A stretch of DNA of 24,208 nucleotides, from the IMG/VR virus record IMGVR_UViG_2529292882_000005, positions 1 through 24,208 of that record. One strand, written 5' to 3'. Source of the stretch: a virus (Duplodnaviria; Heunggongvirae; Uroviricota; Caudoviricetes). A program made the translations under genes and the position numbers. A model generated the notes under the pieces. That model saw nothing but the letters and a program-made list of their open reading frames with translations. It was not told where the DNA came from and did not search any database. Position 1 is the first letter of the stretch. Each line of letters starts with the position of its first letter. Shown here piece by piece: positions 1-20,348 of the stretch.

Positions 1-325
1 TACGCTCACAGTATTCTTCCCAGAGTAGCTGCAGCGTCACGCATTTATTACGCAGTTCCCGGTGTACTGTAGCCCAGTCAGGCAGAGAGTGCTTCTTCAT
101 CTTAACCTGGGTCTGAAGGAACGCATGTTTTAGTTTTGTATCATCCCATCCTGTAGGTAAGGGCCACTGCTTTATGCCAAGTTGAGCCGCCCGATTAGCA
201 TATCTGGATACAACGGAAGGGGAGATTGCAAGACTACGACCAATTTGTCGATGGCTGAGTCCAACACCGTATTTAAGCCTAAGAATTTCTTTAAGTTTTC
301 TCATAGAAATTGGAACTGTTGGCAT
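1..325 (-). CDS. istA: IS21-family transposase IstA, N-terminal portion (gene continues beyond the left window edge)
   Basis: Minus-strand translation from ATG at 325 (alternative in-frame ATG at 304) reads MPTVPISMRKLKEILRLKYGVGLSHRQIGRSLAISPSVVSRYANRAAQLGIKQWPLPTGWDD...HRELRNKCVTLQLLWEEYCER with no stop before position 1. The HTH-like N-terminus and the VTLQLLWEEY segment match my memory of IS21-family IstA proteins. Absent from the ORF track because it is open at the window edge. Confidence 0.75.
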   Translation of the reverse strand, partial: MPTVPISMRKLKEILRLKYGVGLSHRQIGRSLAISPSVVSRYANRAAQLGIKQWPLPTGWDDTKLKHAFLQTQVKMKKHSLPDWATVHRELRNKCVTLQLLWEEYCER

Positions 326-390
326 AGGTATCCTTTACCGGAATGGCAAAAGATACAGATCAACACACCTGTGAAGTTCCAATAACATTG

Positions 391-500
391 ATGGAGATCA
401 CTGAATAACAAAATGAGTCAAAAGTGATCTCCATCGATGTTATTCAGCGATCTGTTCAAATGTTATTACCCGATCTCGATGGAAGTTATTGAGTGATCTC
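391..500. repeat. IS terminal sub-repeats (GGAGATCA / TGATCTCC with CTGAATAA / TTATTCAG motifs, about three copies in both orientations)
   Basis: Seen directly: atggagatcactgaataacaa (391-411), agtgatctccatcgatgttattcagcg (about 424-450), cgatctcgatggaagttattgagtgatctcc (about 470-500). Interpreted as transposase-binding repeats of the IS end. Confidence 0.55.
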
Positions 501-640
501 CTTTCATGAAAATACGCAGTGGTCACTTATGCGGATATCAGGGCGAAACAAGCCGAAATTCTGAAAGCTGAGCAGGAATACATTCAGCGGTTGCGGGAAC
601 AGCCAAAAGGCTGGTCAGTGTTTATGAAGACTCACTGGAA

Positions 641-1021
641 TTGCCAGCTTCACAGTGGCGCGATATTAACGGCAAAGAACGTCCGTATGTTTATATTTTG
701 TGGAATGGGCACAATACAAAACCTGAGGATTTGCGAGTAGAGCTTCAGGATGGTGTCGCATTTGATTTGTGGACTGTCGTTGATGATAACCCTCGTCAGT
801 CTGCAAGCGTGAAGGTTGCGGTAAAGATTGTGTTGCTTGATGGCGATAACATAACGATTTCGGTTAATGGTTATCAGGTCAGAACATTTTCGCACGTAGA
901 TTCGCACGCAAAATTTAACGAGGTATGCGAGTTCATCAAAGACAGTATTTTAATGTCGATGAATGATGTGAAATTTGGCAAAGCATCTCTTCCGAAGATA
1001 GAGGGCTGGAGCCGAAAATAG
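641..1021 (+). CDS. hypothetical protein (126 aa as listed), AT-rich, start codon uncertain (TTG at 641, no ATG, no clear SD); possibly a disrupted gene
   Basis: ORF-track entry 641..1021. The frame is open from 572, and the overlapping ORF 519..740 is in another frame, suggesting a frameshifted or IS-truncated gene. Lower GC than neighbouring phage genes (eyeball estimate). Clean intrinsic terminator directly downstream. No family recognised. Confidence 0.4.
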   Translation: MPASQWRDINGKERPYVYILWNGHNTKPEDLRVELQDGVAFDLWTVVDDNPRQSASVKVAVKIVLLDGDNITISVNGYQVRTFSHVDSHAKFNEVCEFIKDSILMSMNDVKFGKASLPKIEGWSRK

Positions 1022-1043
1022 TTCGAAAATCTCTGAATCACCA

Positions 1044-1070
1044 GGCTACGCATTTGCGTGGCCTTTTTTG
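1044..1070 (+). terminator. rho-independent terminator after ORF 641-1021
   Basis: ggctacgc-attt-gcgtggcc hairpin (8 bp with one G-U wobble) followed by tttttt (1064-1069). Confidence 0.7.
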
Positions 1071-1205
1071 TATCCGCGCCACGCCCGGCGCACATCAAAA
1101 ACCACAGAGCCTTTCAGGGGTGAGCTTACGGGATGGTCAGTGTGACTTTCTCTGTGGGCTGGTCACCCCCGGGCGCAGGCTCACCCACTAAAAGGAAAAG
1201 TCACG

Positions 1206-1631
1206 ATGTTTGGTATTTTCAAAAAGAAAACCCGCAAGGCCATTACTGAAGTAAAGAAAATGGAGAACCGCGACGCAGTGGAGGCGACCGTCTGGGGTGC
1301 GTATTCCATCGCATTCGCCGACGGCACCTGTGATGCGAAAGAAATCGCGGTGCTGGAGAAAACCATTGCAGCACTTCCTGCTTTTGCGCCGTTCTCCGGT
1401 GAGATTGCACAAATGAGTGCAAATATCCGCGCCCGTTATGAAGCGTCGCCGCGTTCTGCCAATGCCGAAGCTCTTCGTCAGCTGGCTGATGTTGCCGGTA
1501 CTGATGATGCAGTTAATGTGCTGTGCCTGTGTCTGGATATCGCTGACCAGGATGGCATTGGTCCGGATGAAGAAGCACAGCTCAAGAAAATTGCTCAGGC
1601 GCTGCAGTTGCCGCTGGAGCAGTACCTGTGA
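1206..1631 (+). CDS. TerB-like (tellurite-resistance TerB family) domain protein, 141 aa
   Basis: ATG at 1206 preceded by aaaaggaaaag SD-like sequence. Two copies of the A-x-ADG...E...L...I..AL pattern (SIAFADGTCDAKEIAVLEKTIAAL and LCLDIADQDGIGPDEEAQLKKIAQALQL) typical of TerB domains as I recall them. E. coli-like codon usage. Confidence 0.55.
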   Translation: MFGIFKKKTRKAITEVKKMENRDAVEATVWGAYSIAFADGTCDAKEIAVLEKTIAALPAFAPFSGEIAQMSANIRARYEASPRSANAEALRQLADVAGTDDAVNVLCLCLDIADQDGIGPDEEAQLKKIAQALQLPLEQYL

Positions 1632-1780
1632 AAAGTGCGCGCCTTGTGTTGGCTGCCATCCTGCTGTTTCTGGTGGTGGCGGTGGATTTCACCGGACGGC
1701 TGATGTCGGTGCTGGCAGATGGTGTGCTGGTGGCGATGGCGCTGGTTGTGCTCCGGCCTTTACTGCGCAAATCTGAATAA
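1628..1780 (+). CDS. small hydrophobic protein, 50 aa, two predicted TM segments (V/M-KSARLVLAAILLFLVVAVDFTGRLMSVLADGVLVAMALVVLRPLLRKSE)
   Basis: GTG start overlaps the TerB-like stop codon (GTGA at 1628-1631), suggesting translational coupling. Strong G/C third-position bias (CTG, GTG, GCG codons). Below the 60-aa cut-off of the ORF track. The overlapping listed ORF 1417..1776 is judged spurious. Confidence 0.4.
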   Translation: MKSARLVLAAILLFLVVAVDFTGRLMSVLADGVLVAMALVVLRPLLRKSE

Positions 1781-1828
1781 CATCACACAAAAGGCATCTG
1801 CGGGTGCCTTTGACGGGGTGTTTTTTAC

Positions 1829-1853
1829 GGGCCGCTGGTGGCCCTTTTTTATT
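1829..1853 (+). terminator. intrinsic terminator immediately upstream of the lysis cassette (possibly preceded by a second hairpin at 1791-1826)
   Basis: gggcc-gctggt-ggccc stem-loop followed by tttttt attt. An upstream hairpin aaggc...gcctt is followed by ggggtgtttttt. Confidence 0.55.
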
Positions 1854-1870
1854 TACAGGAGAAAAAAAGT

Positions 1871-2263
1871 ATGTCTGAACCCTTATCCGGTTCCGGCACG
1901 GCTGCGGCGCTCGGCGGGGCGACGGTATTCGGGCTGTTTACCGGAACGGATTTCGGGATTGTGTTTGGTGCGTTCGCCGGGGCGTTATTTGTGGCAACAA
2001 TTCCGCAGGCGCTTTCAGCCTGGCGTGTGGCAGCGCATTTTCTGGTGTCGTTCATTATCGGCGTGCTGGGGGCAGAGGTTCTGGCATCCTGGCTGGTAAA
2101 GCACACAGGGTTTGACGGTGCACCTGTCGACGCACTGTGTGCAGTACTGGTGTCAGTGGTGTCGGTGAAGATTCTCTCGTTCATCCACCAGCAGGATATT
2201 GCATCACTGGTGTCCGGCCTGTTCTCCCGCCTGCGGGGTGGAGGAGGCGGCAATGTTAAGTAA
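1871..2263 (+). CDS. putative holin (multi-TM, glycine-rich membrane protein, about 130 aa)
   Basis: ATG at 1871 with aggag SD 8-12 nt upstream. About four hydrophobic segments. First gene of a block ending in an endolysin. Stop overlaps the next start (ATGTTAAGTAA). Confidence 0.55.
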   Translation: MSEPLSGSGTAAALGGATVFGLFTGTDFGIVFGAFAGALFVATIPQALSAWRVAAHFLVSFIIGVLGAEVLASWLVKHTGFDGAPVDALCAVLVSVVSVKILSFIHQQDIASLVSGLFSRLRGGGGGNVK

Positions 2264-2528
2264 CCTTCCCGGATTACTGAATGTGGCGTTATGCACGGTT
2301 ATCGTGCTGACGCTCTTTTTTTATCGTCGTCGTGACTCCAGACACAAACCGCTGATGTCATGGCTGGCCTGGCTGCTGATGCTGCTTTATGCCTTTGCGC
2401 CCCTCAGCTATCTGTGTGGTCGCCCGTTAGCGGCGAACTGGCTGGCGGTGGGGCTTAATCTGCTGTTCTGCGTGCTGGTGATACGTGCACGCGGGAACGT
2501 TTCAAAAATTCTTTCATTCCGGAGGTGA
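2253..2528 (+). CDS. membrane protein, holin/antiholin-like (91 aa)
   Basis: ATG at 2253 preceded by ggaggaggcgg. Hydrophobic segments with basic loops (FFYRRRDSRHK). Sits between the putative holin and the endolysin. Confidence 0.5.
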   Translation: MLSNLPGLLNVALCTVIVLTLFFYRRRDSRHKPLMSWLAWLLMLLYAFAPLSYLCGRPLAANWLAVGLNLLFCVLVIRARGNVSKILSFRR

Positions 2529-2530
2529 GT

Positions 2531-2908
2531 ATGTCGGGTAAATTCAGATTCAGCCGTCGCAGTGAAAAAAATCTGGAGGGCGTTAAACCACAGCTGGTTG
2601 CTGTAGTTCGCCGTGCGCTGGAGCTGACGGAGGTTGATTTCGGTATTACGGAAGGGCTGCGCACGAAAGAACGCCAGAAACAGCTGGTTGCAGAAGGTAA
2701 GAGCCGGACCATGAACAGCCGCCACCTGACCGGTGATGCGGTGGATGTTGTGGCCTACATTGGCAGCCAGGTGTCATGGGACTGGCCTCTGTACGAGAAA
2801 ATCGCGCAGGCATTTAAGCAGGCTGCCGCAGAGCTGGGAACTGCCATCGAATGGGGCGGGGACTGGAAAACACTGAAAGACGGGCCTCACTTTCAGTTGA
2901 AACGCTGA
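2531..2908 (+). CDS. endolysin, peptidase M15 family (L-alanyl-D-glutamate endopeptidase type)
   Basis: ATG at 2531 with ggagg SD (GTG at 2525 is the track start). Zn-ligand pattern SRH...GDAVD...GGDW...DGPHFQ typical of M15 phage endolysins. Confidence 0.85.
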   Translation: MSGKFRFSRRSEKNLEGVKPQLVAVVRRALELTEVDFGITEGLRTKERQKQLVAEGKSRTMNSRHLTGDAVDVVAYIGSQVSWDWPLYEKIAQAFKQAAAELGTAIEWGGDWKTLKDGPHFQLKR

Positions 2909-2922
2909 TAACCAGGTGTGTT

Positions 2923-3105
2923 ATGAGCAGAAAACACTGGACACACAGAATGCCGCGAACGGCGGCGAAATGGGCACTGGTAGTGATACTGGTGCCTTTT
3001 TTATTGGTGGGATGCGTCAGCCTGGATAAGGCGCGCCAGCTTTTCGATACGGCTTCTCAGGTCTGCCAGCTTATCGATGGCGTTCGGCAGTGTCTGCAGA
3101 ACTGA
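2923..3105 (+). CDS. small lipoprotein (signal peptide with LVGC lipobox), possible o-spanin-like lysis accessory protein
   Basis: ATG at 2923. Sequence MSRKHWTHRMPRTAAKWALVVILVPFLLVGC followed by a short soluble tail containing two Cys. Immediately downstream of the endolysin. No partner i-spanin ORF detected. Confidence 0.5.
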   Translation: MSRKHWTHRMPRTAAKWALVVILVPFLLVGCVSLDKARQLFDTASQVCQLIDGVRQCLQN

Positions 3106-3276
3106 TCGCCTGTAAGAGCAGAATATTTTGCTGAAAAATGAAGGGTGCGCCAGCGTCCGGAAAGCATGAAATTCTGTGTTTGTGGCTACTCAATAAAATA
3201 AATTCTTTCTGTCGCCGCGAATACTCAAATGTTGATCAGTGCCCGGTGCGGCGACGGGCTTCGATATCAGGAGACG

Positions 3277-3576
3277 ATGATGGAAAAAACAGAAAACAAA
3301 CCGATTGTAATTGGTGCTGATGCTGCTCCGTTTAAGTTTGAGTTGTCTCAACTGGTGGAGATGCGCATCAGTGATGAATGGGGTGAGGTTAAAGCCCGCG
3401 CGCAGTATGCGTATGGCGAAAACCAGTACTTGATCCACTACAAAGCAGCTGATGGTCGCGCCACGACGGAGTGGTTTGGTGAGTCAATGCTGGAAGCAAC
3501 AGAAGATGATCGCCATCCGGGCTGTCCGGTATTTGCCGGTATGAAATTACCGGAAGGCGCAGTTGTTACTGAGTAA
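3277..3576 (+). CDS. hypothetical protein (about 98-99 aa), acidic, no TM segment
   Basis: ATG at 3277 or 3280, with aggaga SD at 3269-3274 favouring 3280. Uninterrupted frame. No family recognised. Confidence 0.5.
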   Translation: MMEKTENKPIVIGADAAPFKFELSQLVEMRISDEWGEVKARAQYAYGENQYLIHYKAADGRATTEWFGESMLEATEDDRHPGCPVFAGMKLPEGAVVTE

Positions 3577-3587
3577 CAGGCATTACA

Positions 3588-3624
3588 GCAGCCCTTCAGT
3601 GAGGGGCTGCGATAATGCTTGTTG
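3588..3624 (+). terminator. hairpin, possible weak terminator after ORF 3277-3576
   Basis: gcagccc-ttcagtgag-gggctgc (7-bp stem) followed by a moderately T-rich stretch (gataatgcttgttg); no strong U tract. Confidence 0.35.
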
Positions 3625-3631
3625 TAATTAG

Positions 3632-3667
3632 TTAATAAGAAATGAAAATGCGCCCTGACAAGGGCGC
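3632..3667 (-). terminator. rho-independent terminator for minus-strand ORF 3675-3872
   Basis: On the minus strand: GCGCCCT-tgtc-AGGGCGC hairpin followed by auuuucauuucuuauu, beginning 8 nt after the ORF stop. Confidence 0.55.
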
Positions 3668-3674
3668 AAAGGCA

Positions 3675-3872
3675 TTACGGATATGGATCTTCTTTTGCAT
3701 CACCCTGGCCGCTTAAAGCAGTCCATGAGTTTTTCGTATGCTCCTTAACGTTTCTGTTTGGGCAAGGTGGGAGGGATGTATTGGAGGATTTTGTAAAAGT
3801 GTATCCGCAATCATCACAGGAGTACGTCCCAGAAGATGTATCACTTCCATATGGAATGCCTGTTTTTTTCAT
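3675..3872 (-). CDS. small hypothetical protein (65 aa, Ser/Thr-rich, Cys motif CDDC...PPCP), moron-like
   Basis: ATG at 3872 with AGGA 7 nt upstream on the minus strand. Own terminator downstream. Lies in an AT-rich stretch (eyeball) between the lysis genes and cos, the position occupied by bor in lambda. Confidence 0.4.
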   Translation of the reverse strand: MKKTGIPYGSDTSSGTYSCDDCGYTFTKSSNTSLPPCPNRNVKEHTKNSWTALSGQGDAKEDPYP

Positions 3873-3978
3873 AAAAATATCCTGATTAAAACATCACAAC
3901 ATTGTGACCATACGAACATTGTGGTTTTGTGCGCGTATTTCAATATTGCTTTATTGATATGTGTGTGATTTACCTCAC

Positions 3979-4200
3979 GTTTTACGGGTCCTTTCCAGAA
4001 TCTGAAACACCGAGGGTCATAGCACGCGCAAAAACGCGCTATTTATGAAAATTTTTCAGGAAAAAGCATGTCGGTACTTCTCGCGCATAACTATTTGTTT
4101 TTTCTGACATCACATCAGTAAAAGGTCCGACATGAAAACACCCGAAAAAGGGCATTTTAAGCGTTTTCATGTCGGACCCTGTATTTGATAGAGAAATGTA
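3979..4200 (+). other. cos packaging site (cosQ-like, cosN region, cosB with three R-type repeats and an AT-rich IHF-like spacer)
   Basis: ttttacgggtcctttcc (3979-3995) and cgctatttatgaaaattttt (4037-4056) closely match the sequences flanking lambda cosN as I remember them. Three copies of CATGTCGGNNC at 4068-4078 (+), 4124-4134 (inverted) and 4168-4178 (+). Lies directly upstream of the Nu1-like gene. Confidence 0.7.
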
Positions 4201-4202
4201 TT

Positions 4203-4751
4203 GTGAAAGTTAACAAAAAGAAACTTGCTGAAATTTTCAACGTGGATCCGCGAACGATTGAACGCTGGCAGTCTCAGGGGCTATCTTGCGTCTCCGGAGG
4301 TAGCAAGGGTGTTGAATCGGTGTTTGATACCGCGATGGCAATTCAGTGGTACGCGCAGAGAGAAACTGATATCGAAAACGAAAAGCTCCGCAAAGAACTG
4401 GAAGATTTGCGTGCGGCTGCAGAATCAGATTTACAACCCGGCACCATTGACTATGAACGCTACCGGCTCACCAAAGCACAGGCTGACGCACAGGAGCTGA
4501 AAAATGCCCGTGAAGAAGGGCTGGTGCTGGAAACGGAATTGTTTACCTTCATTCTGCAACGTGTGGCACAGGAGATTTCGGGGATACTTGTACGTGTGCC
4601 GCTGACATTACAGCGTAAATATCCGGATATTTCACCGTCACACCTTGATGTGGTGAAAACTGAAATCGCGAAAGCCTCCAATGTTGCAGCTAAAGCCGGT
4701 GAAAACGTGGGCAGGTGGATAGATGATTTCAGACGCACAGAAGGCAGCTAA
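4203..4751 (+). CDS. nu1: terminase small subunit (lambda Nu1-like)
   Basis: Translation [27 protein letters not shown]...[24 protein letters not shown] matches lambda Nu1 closely. GTG at 4203 aligns with the lambda Nu1 start; the track start TTG at 4185 is the alternative. Confidence 0.9.
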
Positions 4752-6639
4752 TGCAGCCGGTGCGATAGCTACAGGGCTTTTATCTCTCAATATTCCGGTT
4801 CCACTGACGACGGTTCAGTGGGCTGATCAACATTATTATCTGCCGAAAGAATCTTCATACACTCCCGGACAATGGGAAACCCTGCCGTTTCAGGTTGCCA
4901 TTATGAACAGCATGGGAAATGACCGGATCCGCACCGTTAATCTGATTAAATCGGCGCGCGTTGGTTACACCAAAATGCTGTTGGGGGTGGAGGCTTATTT
5001 TATTGAGCATAAATCCCGTAACAGTCTGCTTTTTCAGCCAACAGATTCTGCGGCAGAAGATTTCATGAAATCTCATGTTGAGCCAACGATCAGGGATGTC
5101 CCTGCATTGCTGGAGCTGGCTCCATGGTTCGGAAGAAAGCACCGCGATAATACACTCACCCTGAAGCGTTTTTCCTCCGGTGTGGGGTTCTGGTGCCTGG
5201 GCGGTGCCGCAGCTAAAAACTACCGTGAAAAATCTGTGGATGTGGTCTGCTATGACGAACTCTCCTCGTTTGAACCGGATGTGGAAAAAGAAGGCTCGCC
5301 GACGCTGCTTGGCGATAAACGTATCGAAGGCTCGGTATGGCCTAAATCCATACGTGGCTCAACGCCGAAAATTAAAGGCTCCTGTCAGATTGAGAAAGCC
5401 GCGAATGAATCTGCGCATTTCATGCGGTTTTATGTCCCTTGCCCTCATTGCGGGGAGGCCCAGTATCTGAAGTTTGGCGATGATGCGACGCCGTCTGGCC
5501 TGAAATGGGAGAAGGGTAAACCGGAAACGGTGTATTACCTGTGTGAACATAATGGCTGTGTGATCCGGCAGTCGGAACTTGACCAGACCGACGGACGCTG
5601 GATTTGTGACAATACCGGGATGTGGACGCGCGACGGCCTGGCATTTTACAGCGCCGGTGATGAGGAGATACCGCCACCGCGCTCAATCACGTACCACGTG
5701 TGGACAGCGTACAGTCCGTTCACCACCTGGGTGCAGATTGTCTACGACTGGCTGGATGCGCTGAAGGATCCGAACGGCGTCAAGACGTTTATTAACACCA
5801 CGCTCGGGGAGCCCTATGAAGAGGCTGTGGCAGAAAAGCTGAGTTTTGAGTTGTTACTGGAAAAGGTCTGCCACTATGGTGCGCAGGTTCCCCTGCGGGT
5901 GGTTTACCTGACCGCAGGGATCGACTCCCAGAAAGATCGCTATGAAATTTATGTCTGGGGCTGGGCTCCCGGCGAAGAAGCCTTTCTGATTGATAAGCAA
6001 ATTATCATGGGGCGACCGGAAGACGAGGACACCCTTAAACGTGTTGATACGGTGATCCGGAAAAAATATCGTCATGCTGACGGTACTGAAATTTCCATTT
6101 CCCGTGTCTGCTGGGATACCGGTGGTATCGACCAGGACATTGTGTATCAGCGTTCAAGGAAACACGGCACTTTTTTTGTGCTTCCCATAAAAGGGGCATC
6201 GGTGTACGGCAAGCCGGTGATCACCATGCCCAAAAAGCGCAACCAGCGTGGTGTGTTTTTGTGTGAGGTGGGCTCAGATACCGTCAAGGAAATGCTGTAC
6301 GCCCGTTTTGCCCTGCCAGTGGTCTCTGCCAGTGAAGCCGCCCCGTACACCTTCCGTTTTCCGGATAACCCCGACATTTTTTCGGAAGAAGAGGCGCGTC
6401 AGATCGTGGCGGAAGAGCTGGTGGAGAAGGTGGTTAATGGCAGGGTGAAACTGCTGTGGGATAAAAAAGGACGACGCAACGAAGCCCTCGACTGCCTGGT
6501 ATATGCCTATGCTGCCCTGCGTATTTCAGTTCAGCGGTGGCAGCTGGATCTTGAAGCACTGGCCCGTGCCAGAAGAGATGAGCAGGACGACGATGAGATG
6601 AGTCTGGAAGAAATCGCGGCTGCACTGAGTGGAGGATAA
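4723..6639 (+). CDS. A: terminase large subunit (lambda gpA-like)
   Basis: 638 aa. [58 protein letters not shown] and [33 protein letters not shown] are near-identical to lambda gpA segments. Start overlaps the Nu1 3' end as in lambda. Confidence 0.95.
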
Positions 6640-6642
6640 AGA

Positions 6643-6852
6643 ATGGTTTATACGCATGAAATGCTTTGTGATGCCCGTCGGGCATTACATGAACTGATGA
6701 TCGGACGTGCTGTGGTTTCCGTCAGCAAGGACGGGCGTCAGGTTCAGTATTCGCGGGCGACGATTGGTGAACTGCGTCAGTATATTGAAGAGCTGGAAAG
6801 TGCGCTGGGTGTATCCGGACGGCGTCGCGGCCCGGCAGGAGTGGGGCTGTGA
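6643..6852 (+). CDS. W: head-tail joining protein (lambda gpW-like)
   Basis: 69 aa. ARRALHELMIGRAVVSVSKDGRQVQYSRATIGELRQYIEELE...RRRGPAG resembles lambda gpW. ggagga SD upstream. Confidence 0.9.
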   Translation: MVYTHEMLCDARRALHELMIGRAVVSVSKDGRQVQYSRATIGELRQYIEELESALGVSGRRRGPAGVGL

Positions 6853-8420
6853 ACGGGGAACTGGTGGATCTTCACGGGCAGCCACTGCGGCAGAGTATGG
6901 GGTATTCCGGAGGGGGTACCGGATTTGGCGGGCAGCTTGCGGAATGGCTGCCTGCACCGGAAAGTGCCGACGTGGCGCTCTTACCTTCCATTCAGCTGGG
7001 TAACGCCCGTGCGGATGATCTGGTCCGCAATAACGGTATTGCCGCAAACGCCGTTGAAATTCATAAAGACCATATCGTCGGACACATGTTTCGTCTGAGT
7101 TACCGGCCCAACTGGCGCTGGCTGGGGATGTCGGAAGCCGATTCACATGTCTTTATTGAAGATGTTGAGGCAGCGTGGATGGAATTCTGCGATCCGGTGT
7201 TTGGTTCGATGGATGTGGAGGGGCGTCGCTCGTTTACCGAATTTATTCGTGAAGGGGTGGGCGTTCATACATTTAACGGTGAAATTTTTGTCCAGCCCGT
7301 ATGGGATACGGAATCCACGTCATTATTCCGGACGAAATTCAAGACCATCAGCCCGAAACGTGTCAGTACACCCGGTTATGGTACCGGCGATCGTTTTATG
7401 CGTGCCGGGGTGGAAATCAACCGGTACGGAAAAGCACTGGCCTACCATGTTCAGGAAGATGACTGGCCCGGTTACGGTGTCAGCAACTGGACGCGGATTG
7501 CGGCGACGCTGCCCTCCGGGCGACCGGGAATGATCCATGTGTTTCAGCCGCAGGAGGACGGGCAGACGCGCGGGGCCAACCAGTTTTATTCTGTCATGGA
7601 GCGTCTCAAGATGCTCGACACACTGCAGGCCACGCAACTGCAGTCGGCGGTGGTGCGGGCGATGTATGCCGCGACGATTGAATCCACGCTGGATTCGGAA
7701 AAAGCATTTGAATATATCGCCGGGGTGGGAGATGGCGGTAAAAATCCCCTGAACACCATCATGAAAGGCTACGCGCGTTATTACGCCACCAATACGGTAA
7801 AGCTGGGTGGGGTCCGTATTCCGCATCTTTATCCGGGGGATTCACTGAATCTGCAGACAGCGCAGAATGCAGATAATGGTTTCTCTGAACTGGAAAAGGC
7901 GCTGTTACGTTACATCGCTGCCGGACTGGGGGTGTCCTATGAACAGCTTTCCCGTGATTATTCACAGGTCAGTTATTCCAGTGCCAGGGCATCCGCCAAT
8001 GAGTCGTGGCGGTATTTTATGGGCAAACGAAAATTTGTGGCCAGTCGACTGGCATCACAGATGTTTGCCTGCTGGCTGGAGGAAGCCCTTATTCGCGGTG
8101 TGATCCGCCCGCCGAAATCCCGTTTTTCATTCTGGGAGGCCCGTTCCGGATGGTGTCGTGCCGAGTGGATTGGTGCCGGTCGCATGGCGATTGATGGCCT
8201 TAAGGAAGTGCAGGAAGCGGTGATGCGTATTGAAGGTGGTTTAAGCACGTACGAGAAAGAGCTGGCCCTGATGGGCGATGACTATCAGGAGATTTTCCGT
8301 CAGCAACTGCGTGAAAGCCAGGAGCGACAGGCAGCGGGTCTTCCCCGCCCCATCTGGATAAAGGACACGTTTCAGCAGCAGATCCGACAGACAACGGGAG
8401 AAAAAGGCGATGCGTCGTAA
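6849..8420 (+). CDS. B: portal protein (lambda gpB-like)
   Basis: GTG start overlapping the W stop (GTGA). Long conserved runs versus lambda gpB (ADDLVRNNGIAANA, GQTRGANQFYSVMERLKMLDTLQ, LNLQTAQNADNGFSELEKALLRYIAAGLGVSYEQLSR). Confidence 0.95.
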   Translation: MNGELVDLHGQPLRQSMGYSGGGTGFGGQLAEWLPAPESADVALLPSIQLGNARADDLVRNNGIAANAVEIHKDHIVGHMFRLSYRPNWRWLGMSEADSHVFIEDVEAAWMEFCDPVFGSMDVEGRRSFTEFIREGVGVHTFNGEIFVQPVWDTESTSLFRTKFKTISPKRVSTPGYGTGDRFMRAGVEINRYGKALAYHVQEDDWPGYGVSNWTRIAATLPSGRPGMIHVFQPQEDGQTRGANQFYSVMERLKMLDTLQATQLQSAVVRAMYAATIESTLDSEKAFEYIAGVGDGGKNPLNTIMKGYARYYATNTVKLGGVRIPHLYPGDSLNLQTAQNADNGFSELEKALLRYIAAGLGVSYEQLSRDYSQVSYSSARASANESWRYFMGKRKFVASRLASQMFACWLEEALIRGVIRPPKSRFSFWEARSGWCRAEWIGAGRMAIDGLKEVQEAVMRIEGGLSTYEKELALMGDDYQEIFRQQLRESQERQAAGLPRPIWIKDTFQQQIRQTTGEKGDAS

Positions 8421-10026
8421 TTTATCGCATATTGCCGCCATGGCATTTAATGAGCCGCTTTTACTGGAACCCGCCTATGCGCGGGTTTTCTTTTGCGCGC
8501 TGGGTAAAGAGATAGGGGCCGGCAGCCTTGCCGTTCCTCAGCAGGCTGTTCAGCTTGATGCTGATGGTATGCAACTGGCGGTGACTGACTATATGGCGGG
8601 CGGTCAGCGTCCGGCAAAGAGTTACCAGGTGAAGAATGGCATTGCCATTCTGCCGGTGAGCGGCACGCTGGTGCATAAACTGGGTACCCTGCGGCCTTAC
8701 TCCGGCATGACAGGCTATGACGGTCTGACTGCTCGTCTTCAGATGGCGGTGAATGATCCGGATGTGCGCGGCATTTTGCTGGATATCGACAGCCCGGGCG
8801 GTCAGGCTGCCGGGGCGTTTGACTGTGCTGACATGATTTACCGTCTGCGGGAACAGAAGCCCGTGTGGGCGCTGTGTAATGACATGGCCTGTTCAGCCGC
8901 CATGTTGCTGGCGGCAGCCTGTACCCGTCGGCTGGTCACGCAGACGGCAAAAATTGGTTCGATTGGCGTGATGATGGCGCACACCAGTTATGAGAAACAA
9001 CTGGCACAGGAAGGGGTGGACATCACGCTGATTTACTCCGGGCAGCACAAGGTTGACGGCAACAGTATTCAGGCATTGCCGGCAGGTGTGCGTGCAGATT
9101 TTCAGCGCCGTATTGATGAGGCCCGCCGGATGTTTGTCGACAAGGTGGCGCTTTATACGGGGCTGAGTTCAGAGGCAGTGATGAATACCGAGGCTGCCGT
9201 TTATGACGGTCAGGCAGGCATTGATGCAGGCCTGGCTGATCAACTGATTAATGCTGCAGATGCCGTTGAAGTGATGGTTTCTGCACTGAATGACTCTGTT
9301 ACGAAGGAGAATGCAATGACTGTTAAAAATCTCACCGTTGCTGAAGCGGTGGCCCAGGAAAATCAGCGCGTGATGGGGATCCTGAATTGTCAGGAGGCGA
9401 AAGGGCGCGAGCAACTGGCGCAAATGCTGGCAGGTCAACCTGGAATGACGGTTGAGCAGGCGAAAACGTTGCTGGCTGCTGCGCCGGTTGCCGGTACTGA
9501 CAGCACGGGTGATCAGATTATGGCGCTGCCGGAAGCAAAGGGGCGTGAACAACTGGCACAGATGCTGGCAGGTCAACCGGGGATGACGGTGGCGCAGGCG
9601 AAAGCGTTTCTGGCGGCAGCCCCTGCTGCCGGTGCTGCAGGCGCAGGCGATCAGATTATGGCGTTACCGGAAGCAAAAGGGCGTGAACAACTCGCGCAGG
9701 CGCTGGCTGAACAGCCGGGAATGACCGTTGACCAGGCCAAAACGTTACTGGCGGCGGCACCGGTTGCGGGCTCTGCAAGTGTCGGCGATCAGATTATGGC
9801 GCTGCCGGAGGCGAAAGGGCGCGAACAACTTGCACAGGCACTGACAGAACAGCCAGGAATGACGGTGGCGCAGGCGAAAACGCTGCTGGCAGCCGCGCCG
9901 GCGGCATCGCAACCGTCACAGGAAACACTTTTTGATCGCTTTATGGCACAGCATGCTGCCAGTGCGGTTTCCGGTGGCGGAACTGCCGGGCGCGGGGAGG
10001 AAGACCTGCTGATGAGTATGCCGTAA
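8410..10026 (+). CDS. C: prohead protease / scaffold fusion (lambda gpC-like, S49 ClpP-type), 538 aa, with expanded C-terminal repeat region
   Basis: N-terminal two thirds align with lambda gpC (IAAMAFNEPLLLEPAYARVFFCAL, YSGMTGYDGL, VWALCNDMACSAAMLLAAACTRRLVTQTAKIGSIGVMMAH). The C-terminus carries four tandem 46-aa units related to the lambda Nu3 region. Confidence 0.9.
   Translation: MRRNLSHIAAMAFNEPLLLEPAYARVFFCALGKEIGAGSLAVPQQAVQLDADGMQLAVTDYMAGGQRPAKSYQVKNGIAILPVSGTLVHKLGTLRPYSGMTGYDGLTARLQMAVNDPDVRGILLDIDSPGGQAAGAFDCADMIYRLREQKPVWALCNDMACSAAMLLAAACTRRLVTQTAKIGSIGVMMAHTSYEKQLAQEGVDITLIYSGQHKVDGNSIQALPAGVRADFQRRIDEARRMFVDKVALYTGLSSEAVMNTEAAVYDGQAGIDAGLADQLINAADAVEVMVSALNDSVTKENAMTVKNLTVAEAVAQENQRVMGILNCQEAKGREQLAQMLAGQPGMTVEQAKTLLAAAPVAGTDSTGDQIMALPEAKGREQLAQMLAGQPGMTVAQAKAFLAAAPAAGAAGAGDQIMALPEAKGREQLAQALAEQPGMTVDQAKTLLAAAPVAGSASVGDQIMALPEAKGREQLAQALTEQPGMTVAQAKTLLAAAPAASQPSQETLFDRFMAQHAASAVSGGGTAGRGEEDLLMSMP
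9316..10026 (+). CDS. nu3: putative scaffolding protein (lambda Nu3-like) from an in-frame internal start within gene C
   Basis: In-frame ATG at 9316 preceded by AAGGAGA (9304-9310). The product MTVKNLTVAEAVAQENQRVMGILNCQEAKGRE... parallels lambda Nu3, which is nested in-frame in the 3' part of C. Confidence 0.55.
   Translation: MTVKNLTVAEAVAQENQRVMGILNCQEAKGREQLAQMLAGQPGMTVEQAKTLLAAAPVAGTDSTGDQIMALPEAKGREQLAQMLAGQPGMTVAQAKAFLAAAPAAGAAGAGDQIMALPEAKGREQLAQALAEQPGMTVDQAKTLLAAAPVAGSASVGDQIMALPEAKGREQLAQALTEQPGMTVAQAKTLLAAAPAASQPSQETLFDRFMAQHAASAVSGGGTAGRGEEDLLMSMP
9394..9945 (+). repeat. tandem direct repeat, period 138 nt (46 codons), 4 copies (last one partial/divergent), inside the scaffold-coding part of gene C
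   Basis: Unit starts at 9394, 9532, 9670 and 9808. Each encodes EAKGREQLAQ(M/A)LA(G/E)QPGMTV(E/A/D)QAK(T/A)LLAAAP...GDQIMALP. Copies differ by scattered, mostly silent or conservative changes. Confidence 0.85.
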
Positions 10027-10064
10027 GCGATATCCGGAATTCAGATAAATCAGGAGGCTGAAAA

Positions 10065-10400
10065 ATGATTAAAACCACCACGGAAAAGCGCGCGGATGTG
10101 CACATTTTTGCCGGAAACGATCCGGCGCATACCGCAAAAGCCACCAGTGGTATCAGTGCCGCCATGCCTGCACTGACGCCACTGATGCTGGATGACGCCA
10201 CCGGTAAACTGGTGGCATGGGATGGTCAGAAAGCCGGAACGGCAGTGGGCGTGCTGGCTCTGGCGCTTACCGGGACCGAGTCCATGCTGACGTACTACAA
10301 AAGCGGTACATTTGCCACTGAGTCGCTGGTCTGGCCTGATTCTGTGGATGCGGTGAAAAAAGCCAACGCATTTGTGGGAAGTGCCATCAGCCACGCCTGA
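10065..10400 (+). CDS. D: head decoration protein (lambda gpD-like)
   Basis: 111 aa. NDPAHTAKATSGISAAMPALTPLMLDDATGKLVAWDG...YYKSGTF matches lambda gpD. caggagg SD upstream. Confidence 0.9.
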   Translation: MIKTTTEKRADVHIFAGNDPAHTAKATSGISAAMPALTPLMLDDATGKLVAWDGQKAGTAVGVLALALTGTESMLTYYKSGTFATESLVWPDSVDAVKKANAFVGSAISHA

Positions 10401-10420
10401 TGGTGAAGTGATTGACTGAA

Positions 10421-10455
10421 AAAACGGGTCGCGATGCGGCCCGTTTGTGTTTCTG
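10421..10455 (+). terminator. putative intrinsic terminator or attenuating hairpin between D and E
   Basis: aacgggtcgc-gat-gcggcccgtt stem (one G-U wobble) followed by tgtgtttct (interrupted T tract). Confidence 0.45.
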
Positions 10456-10469
10456 AAGGAAAATAAATT

Positions 10470-11498
10470 ATGGGGTTATTTACCACGCGTCAGTTACTCG
10501 GGTACACCGAGCAGAAAGTGAAATTTCGTGCGCTGTTTCTGGAGCTGTTCTTTCGTCGCACGATCACTTTCCATACTCAGGAAGTCATGCTGGATAAAAT
10601 TACCGGCAAAACACCGGTTGCGGCGTATGTGTCTCCGGTGGTGTCAGGCAAAGTGCTGCGCAGCCGTGGTGGTGAAACCCGCGTGTTACGTCCCGGTTAT
10701 GTAAAACCAAAACACCGCTTTGATTATCAGCAGGCAGTGGAACGTCTTCCGGGGGAAGATCCGTCCCGTCTTAATGACCCGGCCTACCGCCGCCTGCGTA
10801 TTCTGACGGACAACCTGAAACAGGAAGAGCAGGCGATTGTGCAGGTGGAAGAAATGCAGGCGGTCAGTGCCGTTCTGCAGGGTAAATACACCATGAGCGG
10901 CGAGCAGTTTGAGACAGTGGAAGTGGATTTTGGGCGTTCTGCCGCCAATAACATTACGCAGGCTGGCGGACGCGAATGGTCAAAGCAGAATGCTGACACC
11001 TTTGATCCGACGCATGATCTGGATGCGTACTGCGATTTTGCTTCCGGCACCATCAATATCGCGATTATGGACGGCACGGTCTGGCGTATGCTGAACGGTT
11101 TTAAACTGTTCCGTGAAAAACTGGATACCCGCCGTGGCTCCAAATCTGAGCTGGAAACGGCACTGAAAGACCTGGGTTCCGTGGTTTCCTTTAAGGGCTG
11201 GTACGGCGATCTGGCTGTCGTGGTGGCGAAGACAACGTATGTTGACGAAAACGGGGATGAACAGCGTTATCTGCCGGAAGGTACACTGATTCTGGGAAAC
11301 ACTCAGGCGGAGGGCGTCCGTTGCTATGGCGCAATCCAGGATAATCAGGCGCTGAGTGAAGGGATCACCTCTGCGATTCGTTATCCGAAACACTGGGAGG
11401 AAGTGGGGGATCCTGGTTGCGAATATACCATGACGCAGTCTGCGCCGTTGATGGTGCTGCCGGATCCGGATGCGTTTGTGGTGGTTCAGGTGAAATAA
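10470..11498 (+). CDS. E: major capsid protein (lambda gpE-like)
   Basis: 342 aa. YVSPVVSGKVLRSRGG, PGYVKPKH, EEMQAVSAVLQGKYTMSGEQFE, LDTRRGSKSELETALKDLG and TMTQSAPLMVLPDPDAFVVVQV match lambda gpE. Confidence 0.95.
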   Translation: MGLFTTRQLLGYTEQKVKFRALFLELFFRRTITFHTQEVMLDKITGKTPVAAYVSPVVSGKVLRSRGGETRVLRPGYVKPKHRFDYQQAVERLPGEDPSRLNDPAYRRLRILTDNLKQEEQAIVQVEEMQAVSAVLQGKYTMSGEQFETVEVDFGRSAANNITQAGGREWSKQNADTFDPTHDLDAYCDFASGTINIAIMDGTVWRMLNGFKLFREKLDTRRGSKSELETALKDLGSVVSFKGWYGDLAVVVAKTTYVDENGDEQRYLPEGTLILGNTQAEGVRCYGAIQDNQALSEGITSAIRYPKHWEEVGDPGCEYTMTQSAPLMVLPDPDAFVVVQVK

Positions 11499-11501
11499 GA
11501 C

Positions 11502-11530
11502 GGGGCGGGATATACCCGCCTTTTTCTTTA
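11502..11530 (+). terminator. rho-independent terminator after the major capsid gene
   Basis: ggcggg-atata-cccgcc hairpin followed by tttttcttta. Confidence 0.7.
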
Positions 11531-11548
11531 TCGCACGGGAGAGATGTG

Positions 11549-11914
11549 ATGACAAAAGAGCAGATGACGGAACGCCTTCAGGCGCTGGCAGTGATTCTGG
11601 GGCGTGAAGCAGATATTTCAGGTTCAAAAGCCGATCTTGAGCAGCGTCTGGCGGAATGGGAGGAGGAGGCCGCTGGATTCGATGGGGAGGAGACGGGGAA
11701 GGAAGAGGTGGGCAACGATGCATCCGGCGACGGAATGCATTCTGAGCAGGGACTCGCCCGGGTGCGTATGCTGAAAACGGCGCATATGCCAGCCTGTGAT
11801 GCTGTGACGGGAAAAATGTTGATGTTTGCCCGGGCCTTCAGTGTTGTGCTGGTTAATGAAGCCACAGTTCCCGCGTTGCTGGCAGACGGTCTGGCAGAAA
11901 AAATCCGGGAGTGA
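11549..11914 (+). CDS. FI: DNA packaging protein (lambda gpFI-like)
   Basis: ATG at 11549 with gggagag SD. MTKEQMTERLQAL...SKADLEQRLAEWEEE parallels the lambda FI N-terminus (MTKDELIARLRSL...TKEELALRVAELKEE). The track ORF 11417..11914 has an unsupported upstream start. Confidence 0.8.
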   Translation: MTKEQMTERLQALAVILGREADISGSKADLEQRLAEWEEEAAGFDGEETGKEEVGNDASGDGMHSEQGLARVRMLKTAHMPACDAVTGKMLMFARAFSVVLVNEATVPALLADGLAEKIRE

Positions 11915-12318
11915 TGATGTTCAATAATCTGTTCGATCAGGCCATGAGTGATGCGGATGACATCATCCTGGATACGATGGGGACGGAAATCAGCATATAT
12001 CCGGGCGGCACGGAAAGAAAAATCCGTGCCGTTTTTGATGCCCCGGCAGATAACACCGGGATTAACACTGGCAGCGGCGAAATTCGTGATACTGCGCCCG
12101 TGTTATTTACCCGGAGCGCATGGGCCGCCGGTCTGAAAAAATATGACAGGGTCATGATCCACGGCGAACCCTATCAGGTAGTCGATCCCGGCTGGGATGA
12201 GTCAGGCACTGCGGGTCAGGGGGTGATTACCATCACCCTTGCGCGTGGAGAGCCGGGGAGAAATACACCTGCTGCCCCTGTCCGACCGAGTAAACGTTAT
12301 GGCAGTCAGAGAGCATGA
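11914..12318 (+). CDS. FII: head-tail connector / head completion protein (lambda gpFII-like)
   Basis: ATG at 11914 overlapping the FI stop (TGATG). FNNLFDQAMSDADDIILDTMGTEISI...RAVFDAP...GSGEIRDTAPVLFTRS parallels lambda FII. Confidence 0.85.
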   Translation: MMFNNLFDQAMSDADDIILDTMGTEISIYPGGTERKIRAVFDAPADNTGINTGSGEIRDTAPVLFTRSAWAAGLKKYDRVMIHGEPYQVVDPGWDESGTAGQGVITITLARGEPGRNTPAAPVRPSKRYGSQRA

Positions 12319-13021
12319 ACGAAGCAGTGCCCGGCAGCGACGGCTGGCACGAAACCTCGTCGTCGATATTGATGAAGATGAGGTGCTGAAAATTATCGCT
12401 AAACTGGGTGGGTCAAAAAGTCAGATCCGTAAAGCCTGGGGCGTGGCGCTGAAAAGAGCCGCGTCTGCACTGCGGATGAAGGCTATGGTAGAGTTTAAAA
12501 AACAGGTTGCCCCACGCAGTCAGAAAATGATCAAAAAGCGTGTTCTGCATAATTTTATCATTCGTCGTAACGGTGATGAGTTTGATGAGGCGAAGGTATG
12601 GTTCGGTCTGAACGCCATCAAAGTACGCGATCTGCGCGGACGCATCAGTGGGGGACGATGCGGCGAACGCCATCAGTTGCGCGATGAGCGGGGGCGTTTT
12701 GCACCAGCTTCTCACCGCAGGAAGGCACGGGAGATCCGTTTTAAACCTGCCGGGGAATCCCTGCCTGTCAGCACCTGGTCAACGGATGATGCCTTTATCA
12801 ACCAGTTCGAAGCGGAAAATCGTAACGGACGTATATCAAAAAGGAAAACGATACTGATCCGACAGACATCCGGACGACGGAGGGTGCGTGAAGCGGAAAT
12901 TGATATTTATGAAGCCATGCTGAACCGTATAGAGGATTTTGTTTTTCCGGATGCGGAAGTACTGATCCTGAAAAATTTTGAGCATGAACTGAAATTCCGG
13001 GTATTTAAGGGGCTGGAGTGA
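12299..13021 (+). CDS. hypothetical basic protein (about 240 aa), putative tail completion protein at the head-tail module junction (tentatively lambda gpZ-like)
   Basis: Uninterrupted frame. ATG at 12299 overlaps the FII 3' end. Arg/Lys-rich. Occupies the position of Z in lambda gene order (FII-Z-U). Family assignment is tentative (composition and position only); the start codon is uncertain. Confidence 0.5.
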   Translation: MAVREHERSSARQRRLARNLVVDIDEDEVLKIIAKLGGSKSQIRKAWGVALKRAASALRMKAMVEFKKQVAPRSQKMIKKRVLHNFIIRRNGDEFDEAKVWFGLNAIKVRDLRGRISGGRCGERHQLRDERGRFAPASHRRKAREIRFKPAGESLPVSTWSTDDAFINQFEAENRNGRISKRKTILIRQTSGRRRVREAEIDIYEAMLNRIEDFVFPDAEVLILKNFEHELKFRVFKGLE

Positions 13022-13584
13022 TGGAGCCATTGATGATGGGCGCCTGGCATCAGGCGGTGATTGACAGTCTGAAACAAATTCCCTGGGTGGAAGATGCCGA
13101 TGAGTACCCGGAAAAAGTGACGCAACTGGTGACGCCTGCTGTGTTTGTGGATGTACCGGGCTGGGACAAGGCTCATTTTGCCGACGGGCAAACGCGGGTC
13201 ACGCTGAAATGTGATCTGTTTGTGGTGACAGACCGGGCCGGGAAGACGGAAAACGTGCCAAAACCGCAGATTTTTGCCCGTTGTCTCGCGATGGATTTAT
13301 CTGACTGGATTGAGGGAGCCACGTTCGGGCTGGATAACGTTGATCCGGCGGTTTTTATCGATGCTGAGGTGGATACCTTCGACCGGCTGCTGGACGACTA
13401 CATCGTTTTCCGTGTCTCTTTTGAACAGGACATTCCGGTCGGCGAAGATCCGTTTGCGGTTCCGGCAGGTGCGCCGTTACAGGAAGTCTGGCTGGGTAAA
13501 GTACCGGAAACCGGCAAGAGACATGAGCAGGATTATCGTCTTATCTGGAAATCGGAGGGCACCGGTGATGAGTCTGGCGGATGA
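13021..13584 (+). CDS. hypothetical protein (about 187 aa), putative tail terminator / tail completion protein
   Basis: ATG at 13021 overlapping the upstream stop (TGATG); the track start is GTG at 13018. Acidic protein lying between the lambda-type head-completion genes and baseplate gene V. Function inferred from position only. Confidence 0.5.
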   Translation: MEPLMMGAWHQAVIDSLKQIPWVEDADEYPEKVTQLVTPAVFVDVPGWDKAHFADGQTRVTLKCDLFVVTDRAGKTENVPKPQIFARCLAMDLSDWIEGATFGLDNVDPAVFIDAEVDTFDRLLDDYIVFRVSFEQDIPVGEDPFAVPAGAPLQEVWLGKVPETGKRHEQDYRLIWKSEGTGDESGG

Positions 13585-14191
13585 AGTGGCAGAGTTACGC
13601 CGCAGGGTGGCGGACATGGTCCGTCGCGGCGTGGTGGACGAGGTGATCCCGGGTAGCCCGGTGATGGTTCGGGTGGATATCGGGGATGTGCTTTCGCCTC
13701 CGTTGCCCTGGATTCAGGTACAGTCCGGGCGCTACATGCAGGTCAGTAATTATCCGTCCCCCGGAGATGCCGTTACAGTGATATCGGAGGCGGGCGATCT
13801 GCGTAACGGTCGGGTGTATCCGGGGCCCAATATTGACGCCATTCCTGTCCCTGAGGGCAGTGAATACGAACATGTTATTTTGTTTGATACCGGAACGGAA
13901 ATCCGTTACGACCGTCAGGCTAATGTCCTGTCCATCACGCTGGCTGAAGGCGGCAGCTATAAAATTACAGGCAGGGGAACCCTGGACGGTCCGGTAGAAA
14001 TCACAGATACCCTGACCGTACAGGGTAAAGCAACCATGAATGCTGAGGCGGTGGTTAAGGCGGATCTGATGGTCGGTGGTGAGGTTTCTGATTATCACGG
14101 AACGATGAGTCAAATCAGAATTGTCTATAACGGTCACAATCACCGGGGCGACAGTGGTGGCAGCACCGGACAGCCTGGTCAGCAAATGTAA
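13568..14191 (+). CDS. baseplate assembly / spike protein (P2 gpV-like)
   Basis: ATG at 13568 (MSLADEVAELRRRVADMVRRG...). The C-terminal HNHRGDSGGSTGQP resembles the P2 gpV C-terminus (HKHPGDSGGTTGSP). The track ORF 13274..14191 has a spurious upstream extension. Confidence 0.85.
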   Translation: MSLADEVAELRRRVADMVRRGVVDEVIPGSPVMVRVDIGDVLSPPLPWIQVQSGRYMQVSNYPSPGDAVTVISEAGDLRNGRVYPGPNIDAIPVPEGSEYEHVILFDTGTEIRYDRQANVLSITLAEGGSYKITGRGTLDGPVEITDTLTVQGKATMNAEAVVKADLMVGGEVSDYHGTMSQIRIVYNGHNHRGDSGGSTGQPGQQM

Positions 14192-14224
14192 TCCCCTTTC
14201 AGTTCTTTTTCCGGAATAAACAAC

Positions 14225-14581
14225 ATGATTGGTATTGATTCAGCCACCGGCAGATATCTGCACGGTAACGAACATCTGCGCCAGTCCGTCACTGATATTT
14301 TGTCAACACCGGTCGGCAGCCGGGTCCTGCTCAGGGAATACGGCAGCAGACTTTTCAGTCTGCTTGATAACCCACAGGATGATTTCACGCGGGTGAGAAT
14401 TGTCCGTGAAACGGTAACCGCCCTTGAACGCTGGGAACCCCGTCTGACTCTCCGGCGGGTGGAAGTGACGTGGACAGGAGAAGGAAGTGCGTGGCTGACG
14501 CTTGTCGGGGTGAATAACGAAACTCAGGACACGATTCGACTCGAGGAGATAAAAATTGGCAACGTCTCAGGCAATTATTGA
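14225..14581 (+). CDS. baseplate protein (P2 gpW / gp25-like)
   Basis: 118 aa. ILSTPVGSRVLLREYGSRLFSLLDNPQD...ALERWEPRLTLRRVEV matches the GPW/gp25 family. Confidence 0.85.
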   Translation: MIGIDSATGRYLHGNEHLRQSVTDILSTPVGSRVLLREYGSRLFSLLDNPQDDFTRVRIVRETVTALERWEPRLTLRRVEVTWTGEGSAWLTLVGVNNETQDTIRLEEIKIGNVSGNY

Positions 14582-17279: not shown

Positions 17280-17281
17280 CA

Positions 17282-17824: not shown

Positions 17825-17842
17825 AAAAGAAGTTAATCATCT

Positions 17843-17867
17843 GACCGCCTGAGGGCGGTTTTTTTAT
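17843..17867 (+). terminator. rho-independent terminator between the fibre-assembly and sheath genes
   Basis: accgcc-tgag-ggcggt hairpin followed by ttttttt, 12 nt before the sheath ATG. Confidence 0.8.
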
Positions 17868-17878
17868 GGGAGAAATGT

Positions 17879-19869: not shown

Positions 19870-19888
19870 TCCGGGGATCCTGTCATTC

Positions 19889-19917
19889 AGGCGGCTCAGG
19901 CCGCCTTTTCTTTTTAA
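19889..19917 (+). terminator. rho-independent terminator after the tube gene
   Basis: aggcggc-tcag-gccgcct hairpin followed by tttctttttaaa. Confidence 0.8.
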
Positions 19918-19928
19918 AGGAGATGCTT

Positions 19929-20231: not shown

Positions 20232-20348
20232 CAGCGATACGGCGTGCCGGTGCCTGGTTCGGGTGGTCTCCCGGAGATGTGATGGCGCTGCCGTATACGG
20301 ATTTTGTGGCAATGATGCTGGCGGAGTCGGAAGAGAGGAAGCGATGTT

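Follow-up and report, generated by a model that had tools for sequence, protein, structure and literature searches.

An ISEc12-interrupted, frameshifted gene in the late region of a phiP27-like prophage: very probably a decayed moron cassette

Two kinds of described systems bear on the locus considered here, namely the morons of lambdoid phages and the toxin cassette of the Shiga toxin prophage phiP27. Hendrix and colleagues reportedly described the morons of HK97 and HK022 as promoter-gene-terminator units inserted between conserved neighbours. In phiP27, a methyltransferase gene is followed by tRNA-Ile, tRNA-Arg, stx2eAB, two holin genes and an endolysin gene; this slot shows strong expression upon induction, and virulence or fitness genes have been captured there time and again. 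Expression of late genes in lambdoid phages involves Q antitermination. As for the mobile element found at our locus, full copies of ISEc12 (L003-L005) measure 2,581 bp (TGCGTATT...ATACGCA) and possess the TG...CA termini and multiple terminal repeats of the IS21 type. These copies carry 5-bp target duplications (CTGGT, CCGGG and GGCAG).

We analysed a stretch of 24,208 nucleotides (hereafter the window) of the Caudoviricetes record IMGVR_UViG_2529292882_000005, in which a region at 519-1073 contains two overlapping open reading frames directly inside an IS21-family junction. With a probability of about 0.9, this region is a copy, now inactive, of a 612-bp moron cassette in a lambdoid (phiP27-like) prophage. 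The sequence-only reading of this DNA had offered two alternatives, i) a moron that was acquired horizontally and uses a non-canonical start, or ii) damage to a gene through the adjacent IS or a frameshift. The evidence supports both at once. As for i), the region belongs to a 612-bp low-GC cassette that has a GTG start and a terminator of its own and is absent at the corresponding site of a related phage. As for ii), the window copy bears two lesions, a 1-bp deletion at 598/599 and an ISEc12 element inserted exactly at the start codon. Ordinary prophage gene decay accounts for the odd ORF pair at 519-1021. For the window itself this is of little import: the exact IS boundary now stands at 518/519, and the ORF pair is explained as a pseudogene.

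The two overlapping frames described earlier (519-740 and 572/641-1021) are both present on the plus strand. In the ORF list, the first is a 73-aa ORF with a GTG start (519-740) and the second a 126-aa ORF with a TTG start (641-1021); the second frame is open from 572, being bounded by a TGA at 569-571. That the longer ORF lacks an ATG and a Shine-Dalgarno sequence had also been observed correctly: an in-frame ATG appears only close to its end, and no AGGAG-like motif precedes position 641. The reason is that this ORF is merely the downstream part of a shifted gene. Both frames are parts of one gene, which in intact copies encodes a single protein of about 167 aa. Codons 1-26 and two bases of codon 27 (MVTYADIRAKQAEILKAEQEYIQRLR) occupy 519-598 in the original frame, as seen from the homologue alignment and the ORF list. 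Relative to all homologues, a T is missing between 598 and 599 (DNA alignments, two intact E. coli genes), the homologues reading GGGATACAGCC and the window GGGA-ACAGCC, and the frame is shifted at codon 27. Past this lesion, the original frame runs into a premature TAG at 738-740, while the remaining 140 or so codons continue at 599-1021 in the -1 frame (open at 572-1021) and end at the native stop codon TAG at 1019-1021. Merging the two frames gives a translation that can be aligned over its entire length with intact proteins, at up to 92% identity (tblastn, E ~1e-105). Loss of the single T would have left a 73-aa product with a nonsense tail and a 3' part that could no longer be translated.

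A homology search with a frame-merged translation and an alignment to relatives lacking the IS had been proposed as checks. The search returned intact homologues, with the 92% identity given above as its upper value, and led to PHROG 5091; the alignment recovered the intact gene in E. coli prophages. The sequence-only reading had further held that homologues with a single intact ORF and a normal start would count against a damaged gene. Such homologues were indeed found, and the conclusion attached to them does not stand: what they show instead is the frameshift.

An intact homologue matches PHROG 5091 at 1.4e-49 (residues 14-168 against profile positions 2-162 of 164). Family membership implies an uninterrupted ORF of about 155-180 aa, and the window copy, being split into 519-740 and 572-1021, is a pseudogene member of this family. 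Matches at 82% identity or more (megablast) were present in 22 of 5,426 complete E. coli genomes, each annotated as a single 'hypothetical protein'. Intact single ORFs occur in two E. coli prophages (L001 and L002) and at 18 IMG/VR loci, and 120 clusters at 50% identity were matched by the family among 1.84 billion representatives. Intact copies are under purifying selection (dN/dS 0.14-0.28). For the intact family, no known family or fold was found in the databases searched. Pfam gave sub-threshold noise only (e.g. RepB_C and DUF3576) for three window/homologue translations and 55 family members, and NCBIfam contained no family matching the cassette protein. PADLOC yielded no defence-component match at E <= 1 for either the intact protein or its TerB neighbour, and the best hit of a profile search of all PDB sequences had an E value of 0.13. 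The close-family alignment retrieved no related locus from species-representative genomes, and literature searches on TciA/TciB, DUF3927/TerB/holin and phiP27 yielded no mention of the cassette gene. A profile match to a protein of 2,983 aa (P0033), in 21 stretches and at profile positions 50-118, was rejected, because Pfam assigns PKD/K319L-like repeats to this protein; the match is probably compositional or spurious.

Altered reading frames were observed in other copies as well. In L012 (4085-4095), an A-run (GCAAAAAAAGCTGG) contains an independent +1 frameshift, which lies 7 nt further downstream than the window's lesion. Four other loci (L013-L015 and L020, 4450-4500) share a shifted C-terminal tail ending in LCRR.

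The second lesion is found at the left edge of the gene. Window positions 1-518 are the istA-proximal (left) end of ISEc12 on the minus strand, as established by megablast, annotation and comparison of three copies. This segment is 99-99.8% identical to annotated ISEc12 plasmid copies (megablast), with the 5' part of istA at 1-325 on the minus strand and the istA start at 325, matching the annotation. Three independent copies from different plasmid contexts all end in ...GAAAATACGCA at the base equivalent to window 518 and then diverge; therefore, the first phage base is G519. The terminal repeat region of the window copy ends with ...ATACGCA at 518. The window holds 518 bp of the element, and the left junction lies outside it.

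An allele identical to the window yet free of the IS was found in a Logan contig (L025), recorded in 8 public samples, which equals window 519-1838 at 1,320 of 1,320 positions, the deletion included. Across the insertion site (marked by a slash), this allele reads ...GATTGATACA/GTGGTCACTT, or more widely ...TTCATAAGAGGATTGATACA/GTGGTCACTT, in short AAGAGGATTGATACA/GTGGT. Considering the 5-bp habit of ISEc12 and this empty allele, the first phage bases GTGGT (519-523, plus strand), which include the GTG start at 519-521, are the predicted right-hand copy of a target-site duplication. The left IS junction would accordingly be expected to read ...AAGAGGATTGATACAGTGGT/TGCGTATTACC, amounting to a GTGGT duplication and to simple transposition into GTGGT from the empty allele. 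Exact-pattern searches with the right junction and with the predicted left junction gave no hits in the genome, viral and metagenome contig collections, and this IS junction was absent from the complete E. coli genomes, species-representative genomes, and viral and metagenome contigs searched.

Since the frameshifted allele of L025 is identical over 1,320 bp yet IS-free, the frameshift most likely arose before the IS insertion. The simplest history would be a deletion at 598/599, followed later, in the window's lineage, by transposition of ISEc12 into the start-codon pentamer GTGGT. The insertion would place 2.6 kb between the GTG and its Shine-Dalgarno sequence (SD) and promoter-like region, and a pattern scan of the IS end (window 300-518) detected no outward promoter-like site on the plus strand. 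The IS thereby probably uncouples an intact GTG from its expression signals and does not truncate the coding sequence. From the removal of the promoter-like site and SD together with the shifted frame, we infer that the window copy is a dead, silent gene. Translation of the remnant, from a GTG devoid of its SD and by way of a chance -1 slip at the CCA-AAA-G motif considered below, should be negligible.

Several other explanations of the split frames were weighed against this one. That the gene is still functional, either by -1 ribosomal frameshifting that joins both frames or as separate polypeptides of 73 and 126 aa, is very improbable. CCA AAA G is present in the zero frame at window 603-609, 8 nt past the deletion, and a -1 slip of tRNA-Lys on A-AAA would regain the native frame with three residues changed (LREQPKRLV versus LRDTAKRLV); moreover, the frameshifted allele persists in those 8 public samples. 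However, the tandem slippery heptamer X XXY YYZ of a programmed -1 site is absent, with a single A-AAA-G alone being present, and there is no obvious stimulatory element. All other homologues but one are single, unshifted and uninterrupted ORFs, and the exception, L012, has the different, independent frameshift described above. The 126-aa ORF, with its TTG and no SD, would lack a 36-residue N-terminal helix that is packed in the structural model, and in the window the IS has removed the SD and the promoter-like region. We therefore judged the CCA AAA G motif to be a coincidence and no recoding signal. A sequencing or assembly error, which would leave the gene intact apart from the IS, can hardly be credited either, even though single-base indels are the commonest assembly error. 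The deleted T does not lie in any homopolymer (GGGATACAG as against GGGAACAG after the deletion), the independently assembled L025 agrees with the window throughout, deletion included, and an identical 73-aa product is already stored in public data as protein P0113. Least credible of all are chance open frames in AT-rich junk beside an IS, without any gene. The longer frame does lack an ATG and an SD, and its GC content is low, but homologues match at E values of 1e-100, their dN/dS is that of a gene under purifying selection, AlphaFold2 predicts a confident fold, and the position in the late region is conserved in distant phages. The lack of conservation that a random ORF would have shown was thus not borne out.

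A further alternative concerns the start codon and, with it, the effect of the IS. On comparative grounds, GTG519 is most probably the native start, because of the M-x-ITY starts of the family, the SD in every lineage and the switch between GTG and ATG. The 55-member family alignment begins with M-x-I-T-Y, the PHROG profile begins there too, and in most of the 120 family representatives the start falls at profile position 13-14, which is the M-x-ITY position. An SD (AAGAGGA, AGGAGA, AAGGAAGGA or GAGAGA) is located 8-9 nt before the start codon in every lineage, and the start codon at this same position alternates between GTG and ATG among lineages. We consider it unlikely that translation truly starts at a conserved ATG located 12-13 codons further upstream, the choice made in the NCBI models of 180-194 aa, in which case the IS would truncate the coding sequence. 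An in-frame upstream ATG does occur at a fixed distance of 36-39 nt in lineages sharing 44-48% protein identity (L001, L016, L021 and L022), preceded in some lineages by GAGG or AGAGG at 8 nt. PGAP and some gene callers choose this upstream start, and NCBI genes begin at least 13 codons upstream. On the other hand, the codons upstream of the GTG are unconserved as amino acids and seem to follow a nucleotide-level pattern instead (a TATTAT box, TTTAT and the SD's AGGA), and the GTG/ATG alternation falls exactly at the M-x-ITY position. Under either start choice, the gene is disabled. The upstream ATG overlaps a conserved TATTAT/TATAAT/CATAAT box, which may be a -10 element or an alternative start.

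Returning to the decayed cassette, its composition and boundaries were examined. The low GC content that had been estimated by eye was confirmed by calculation: it is 0.443 at 519-1021, as opposed to 0.530 in the rest of the phage DNA and 0.55 in the adjacent lysis genes, which puts the region at the 2.3rd percentile among windows of equal size. A second low-GC patch (0.39-0.40) was noted at window 3750-4200, just upstream of the Nu1-type small terminase gene. The intrinsic terminator reported at the end of the region is also real. It spans 1043-1070 on the plus strand (AGGCTACGCA-TTT-GCGTGGCCT, then T6), with a 9-bp stem at 1043-1064 and the T6 tract at 1065-1070 according to the pattern scan, and folds with -15.9 kcal/mol (z = -4.4), 0 of 200 shuffles being as good. 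This hairpin also follows homologues of just 27-48% protein identity, and the terminator is a module boundary.

The site is empty in phage vB_Apl-pPE4, where the left hairpin is joined straight to the right flank (GGCGGGCCTTTTTCATAT/CCGCGCCACGCC). From this, the size of the cassette follows as 612 bp; its right boundary is at about 1073/1074 by the same empty-site comparison, and a short repeat, GGCCTTTTTnATAT, flanks it. A comparison by hhalign revealed no relation of the family to the alternative cargo gene of vB_Apl-pPE4. When intact, the cassette would consist of a weak sigma-70-like box, a strong SD (AAGAGGA) 8 nt before the start, a GTG ORF of about 167 codons and a rho-independent terminator. 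In L001, a terminator after tRNA-Arg is followed by a 9/12 promoter-like box, the SD, the gene and its terminator. Such 9/12 boxes (TTTTCA-16-TATTAT and variants) were seen in L001, L016, L022 and L026, where their ends lie 31-38 nt upstream of the start, with counts not above those in shuffles.

Judging from gene order, the cassette occupies the cargo/toxin slot of the P27-like late region, between the phage tRNAs and the TerB/TciB-holin-endolysin block. In E. coli 'numer 3' (L001), the order is methyltransferase, tRNA-Ile, tRNA-Arg, cassette gene, TerB, DUF3927, holin, holin, (LT-II) and M15 endolysin; the A and B genes of heat-labile enterotoxin type II were observed there between the holins and the endolysin (6178-7323). 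In phiP27 (L036, 3003-4238), stx2eAB stands exactly where the cassette and TerB/DUF3927 stand in the window. More distant homologues were found in comparable surroundings. A homologue of 48% identity is situated between tRNAs and holin, lysozyme and Rz genes, one of 31% identity follows Q and HNH and precedes a holin gene, and one of 27% identity, from phage CharmingMan, lies in the order Q, HNH, gene, TerB, TciB. A variant order was found for a homologue of 44% identity, which is preceded by the lysis cassette and followed by the terminase gene. In the phage with the homologue of 31% identity (L026/L027, 7159-7395), we also noted, after Rz, a gene whose product contains the Acb2/Tad1 hairpin domain of the anti-CBASS/anti-Thoeris sponge family.

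The conserved neighbour block outside the cassette (1074-1780, plus strand) was recognized by Pfam and synteny and comprises a 135-nt leader, a TerB/TciA-like ORF (1206-1631) and a DUF3927/TciB-like ORF (1628-1780); two holin genes and an M15 endolysin gene follow. In Pfam, the neighbours matched TerB (4.9e-7) and DUF3927 (2.4e-14), as well as Phage_holin_8, Phage_holin_3_7 and Peptidase_M15_4. TerB adjoins the cassette gene in 17 of 21 loci, including that of the homologue of 27% identity. Nevertheless, an obligate TerB/TciB partnership was not found, as the gene occurs without TerB in L012, L021, L022, L023 and L026-L029, and TerB occurs without the gene. The cassette gene and TerB are separate modules. 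Conservation is about 80-100% for the terminator hairpin and the 135-nt TerB leader, while the gene varies at 27-92%. At the protein level, the TerB/TciA-like (141 aa) and DUF3927/TciB-like (50 aa) products are 88-100% identical among the window and L001-L020, the corresponding range for the cassette protein being 27-92%, and a sharp mosaic boundary between the TerB/DUF3927 side and the cassette side is seen at the terminator. The GC-rich 135-nt spacer (1071-1205) contains a long imperfect hairpin at about 1107-1182 (-54.1 kcal/mol, z = -2.2); its conservation of about 80-100% extends to phage CharmingMan, and some of the changes are paired. An Rfam search of window 1-4500 gave one sub-threshold match and none for this spacer, which could act as a leader that regulates the TerB/TciB operon.

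In this prophage, 2.6 kb of IS now separates the promoter and tRNA region of the late operon from all late genes. By analogy with lambdoid Q antitermination, the downstream late genes may still be transcribed through the antisense IS by a Q-modified polymerase. Further downstream (window 4185-23764), packaging and head genes of the lambda type (Nu1, gpA, lambda-family portal, S49 protease and capsid E) occur together with a contractile-tail sheath and a GPD-like baseplate hub.

What the intact protein does can be approached through its predicted structure. The AlphaFold2 model (pLDDT 85, pTM 0.77) comprises two helices (residues 4-39 and 130-152), an antiparallel sheet of eight short strands and a tail that is disordered. 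Members of the family are mildly acidic, with a median pI of 5.1, and the window protein reconstructed by merging the frames has no transmembrane or hydrophobic segment. The intact protein is predicted to be soluble, mildly acidic and cytoplasmic and of an alpha+beta type, its antiparallel sheet being accompanied by a long helix at the N terminus and another helix at the C terminus. A Foldseek search of PDB and BFVD gave no match at E <= 0.001. F-actin capping protein subunits, the FP domain of Fbxo7-PI31, frataxin-like folds and type III chaperone-like sandwiches resemble the model in topology alone (Z <8, 5-14% identity). As a lead, the modelled architecture would be closer to small dimeric binding proteins than to enzymes.

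Tentatively, and at odds that are rather against it, the intact protein might be a non-enzymatic, protein-binding accessory factor, acting in exclusion or defence in the lysogen or in counter-defence early in late transcription. It is more doubtful still whether PHROG 5091 represents a functionally new accessory protein, with a fold that has no significant neighbours, carried as a self-contained unit in the toxin slot of lambdoid prophages directly after Q/tRNAs and ahead of the holin, and providing some trait open to selection (superinfection exclusion, counter-defence or lysis modulation, for instance); if it did, the repeated decay (in the window and in L012) would reflect a cost in some hosts. 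Independent decay in other copies supports the dispensability of the gene in the lysogen. As the intact family shares its slot with Shiga toxin 2e in P27-like prophages, it is a reasonable, low-priority candidate for functional testing.

Finally, we compared the locus with known systems. Its nearest relatives are the PHROG 5091 examples WP_324748270.1 (strain numer 3) and WP_244578150.1 (AST240), which are the same gene as that of the window, the merged translation being 92% identical. Intact E. coli homologues share the window's neighbours, with tRNA-Ile and tRNA-Arg upstream and TerB-DUF3927-holin-holin-M15 endolysin downstream, as well as the terminator. Unlike the intact PHROG 5091 copies, the one in the window has the 1-bp deletion at codon 27 and ISEc12 before its start. 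This insertion resembles other gene-disrupting insertions of ISEc12 in the element end, the istA orientation and the 5-bp target duplication habit. With the stx2e cassette of phiP27, the locus shares the slot after the methyltransferase, tRNA-Ile and tRNA-Arg and before the holins and the M15 endolysin, but the cassette protein resembles Shiga toxin in neither sequence nor fold, lacks a signal peptide and has a predicted cytoplasmic location. Compared with lambdoid morons, the promoter of the cassette is a predicted, weak consensus match and the unit is dead here, whereas the features in common are a discrete unit, a terminator of its own, a GC content lower than that of the surroundings, and absence at the junction of a related phage.
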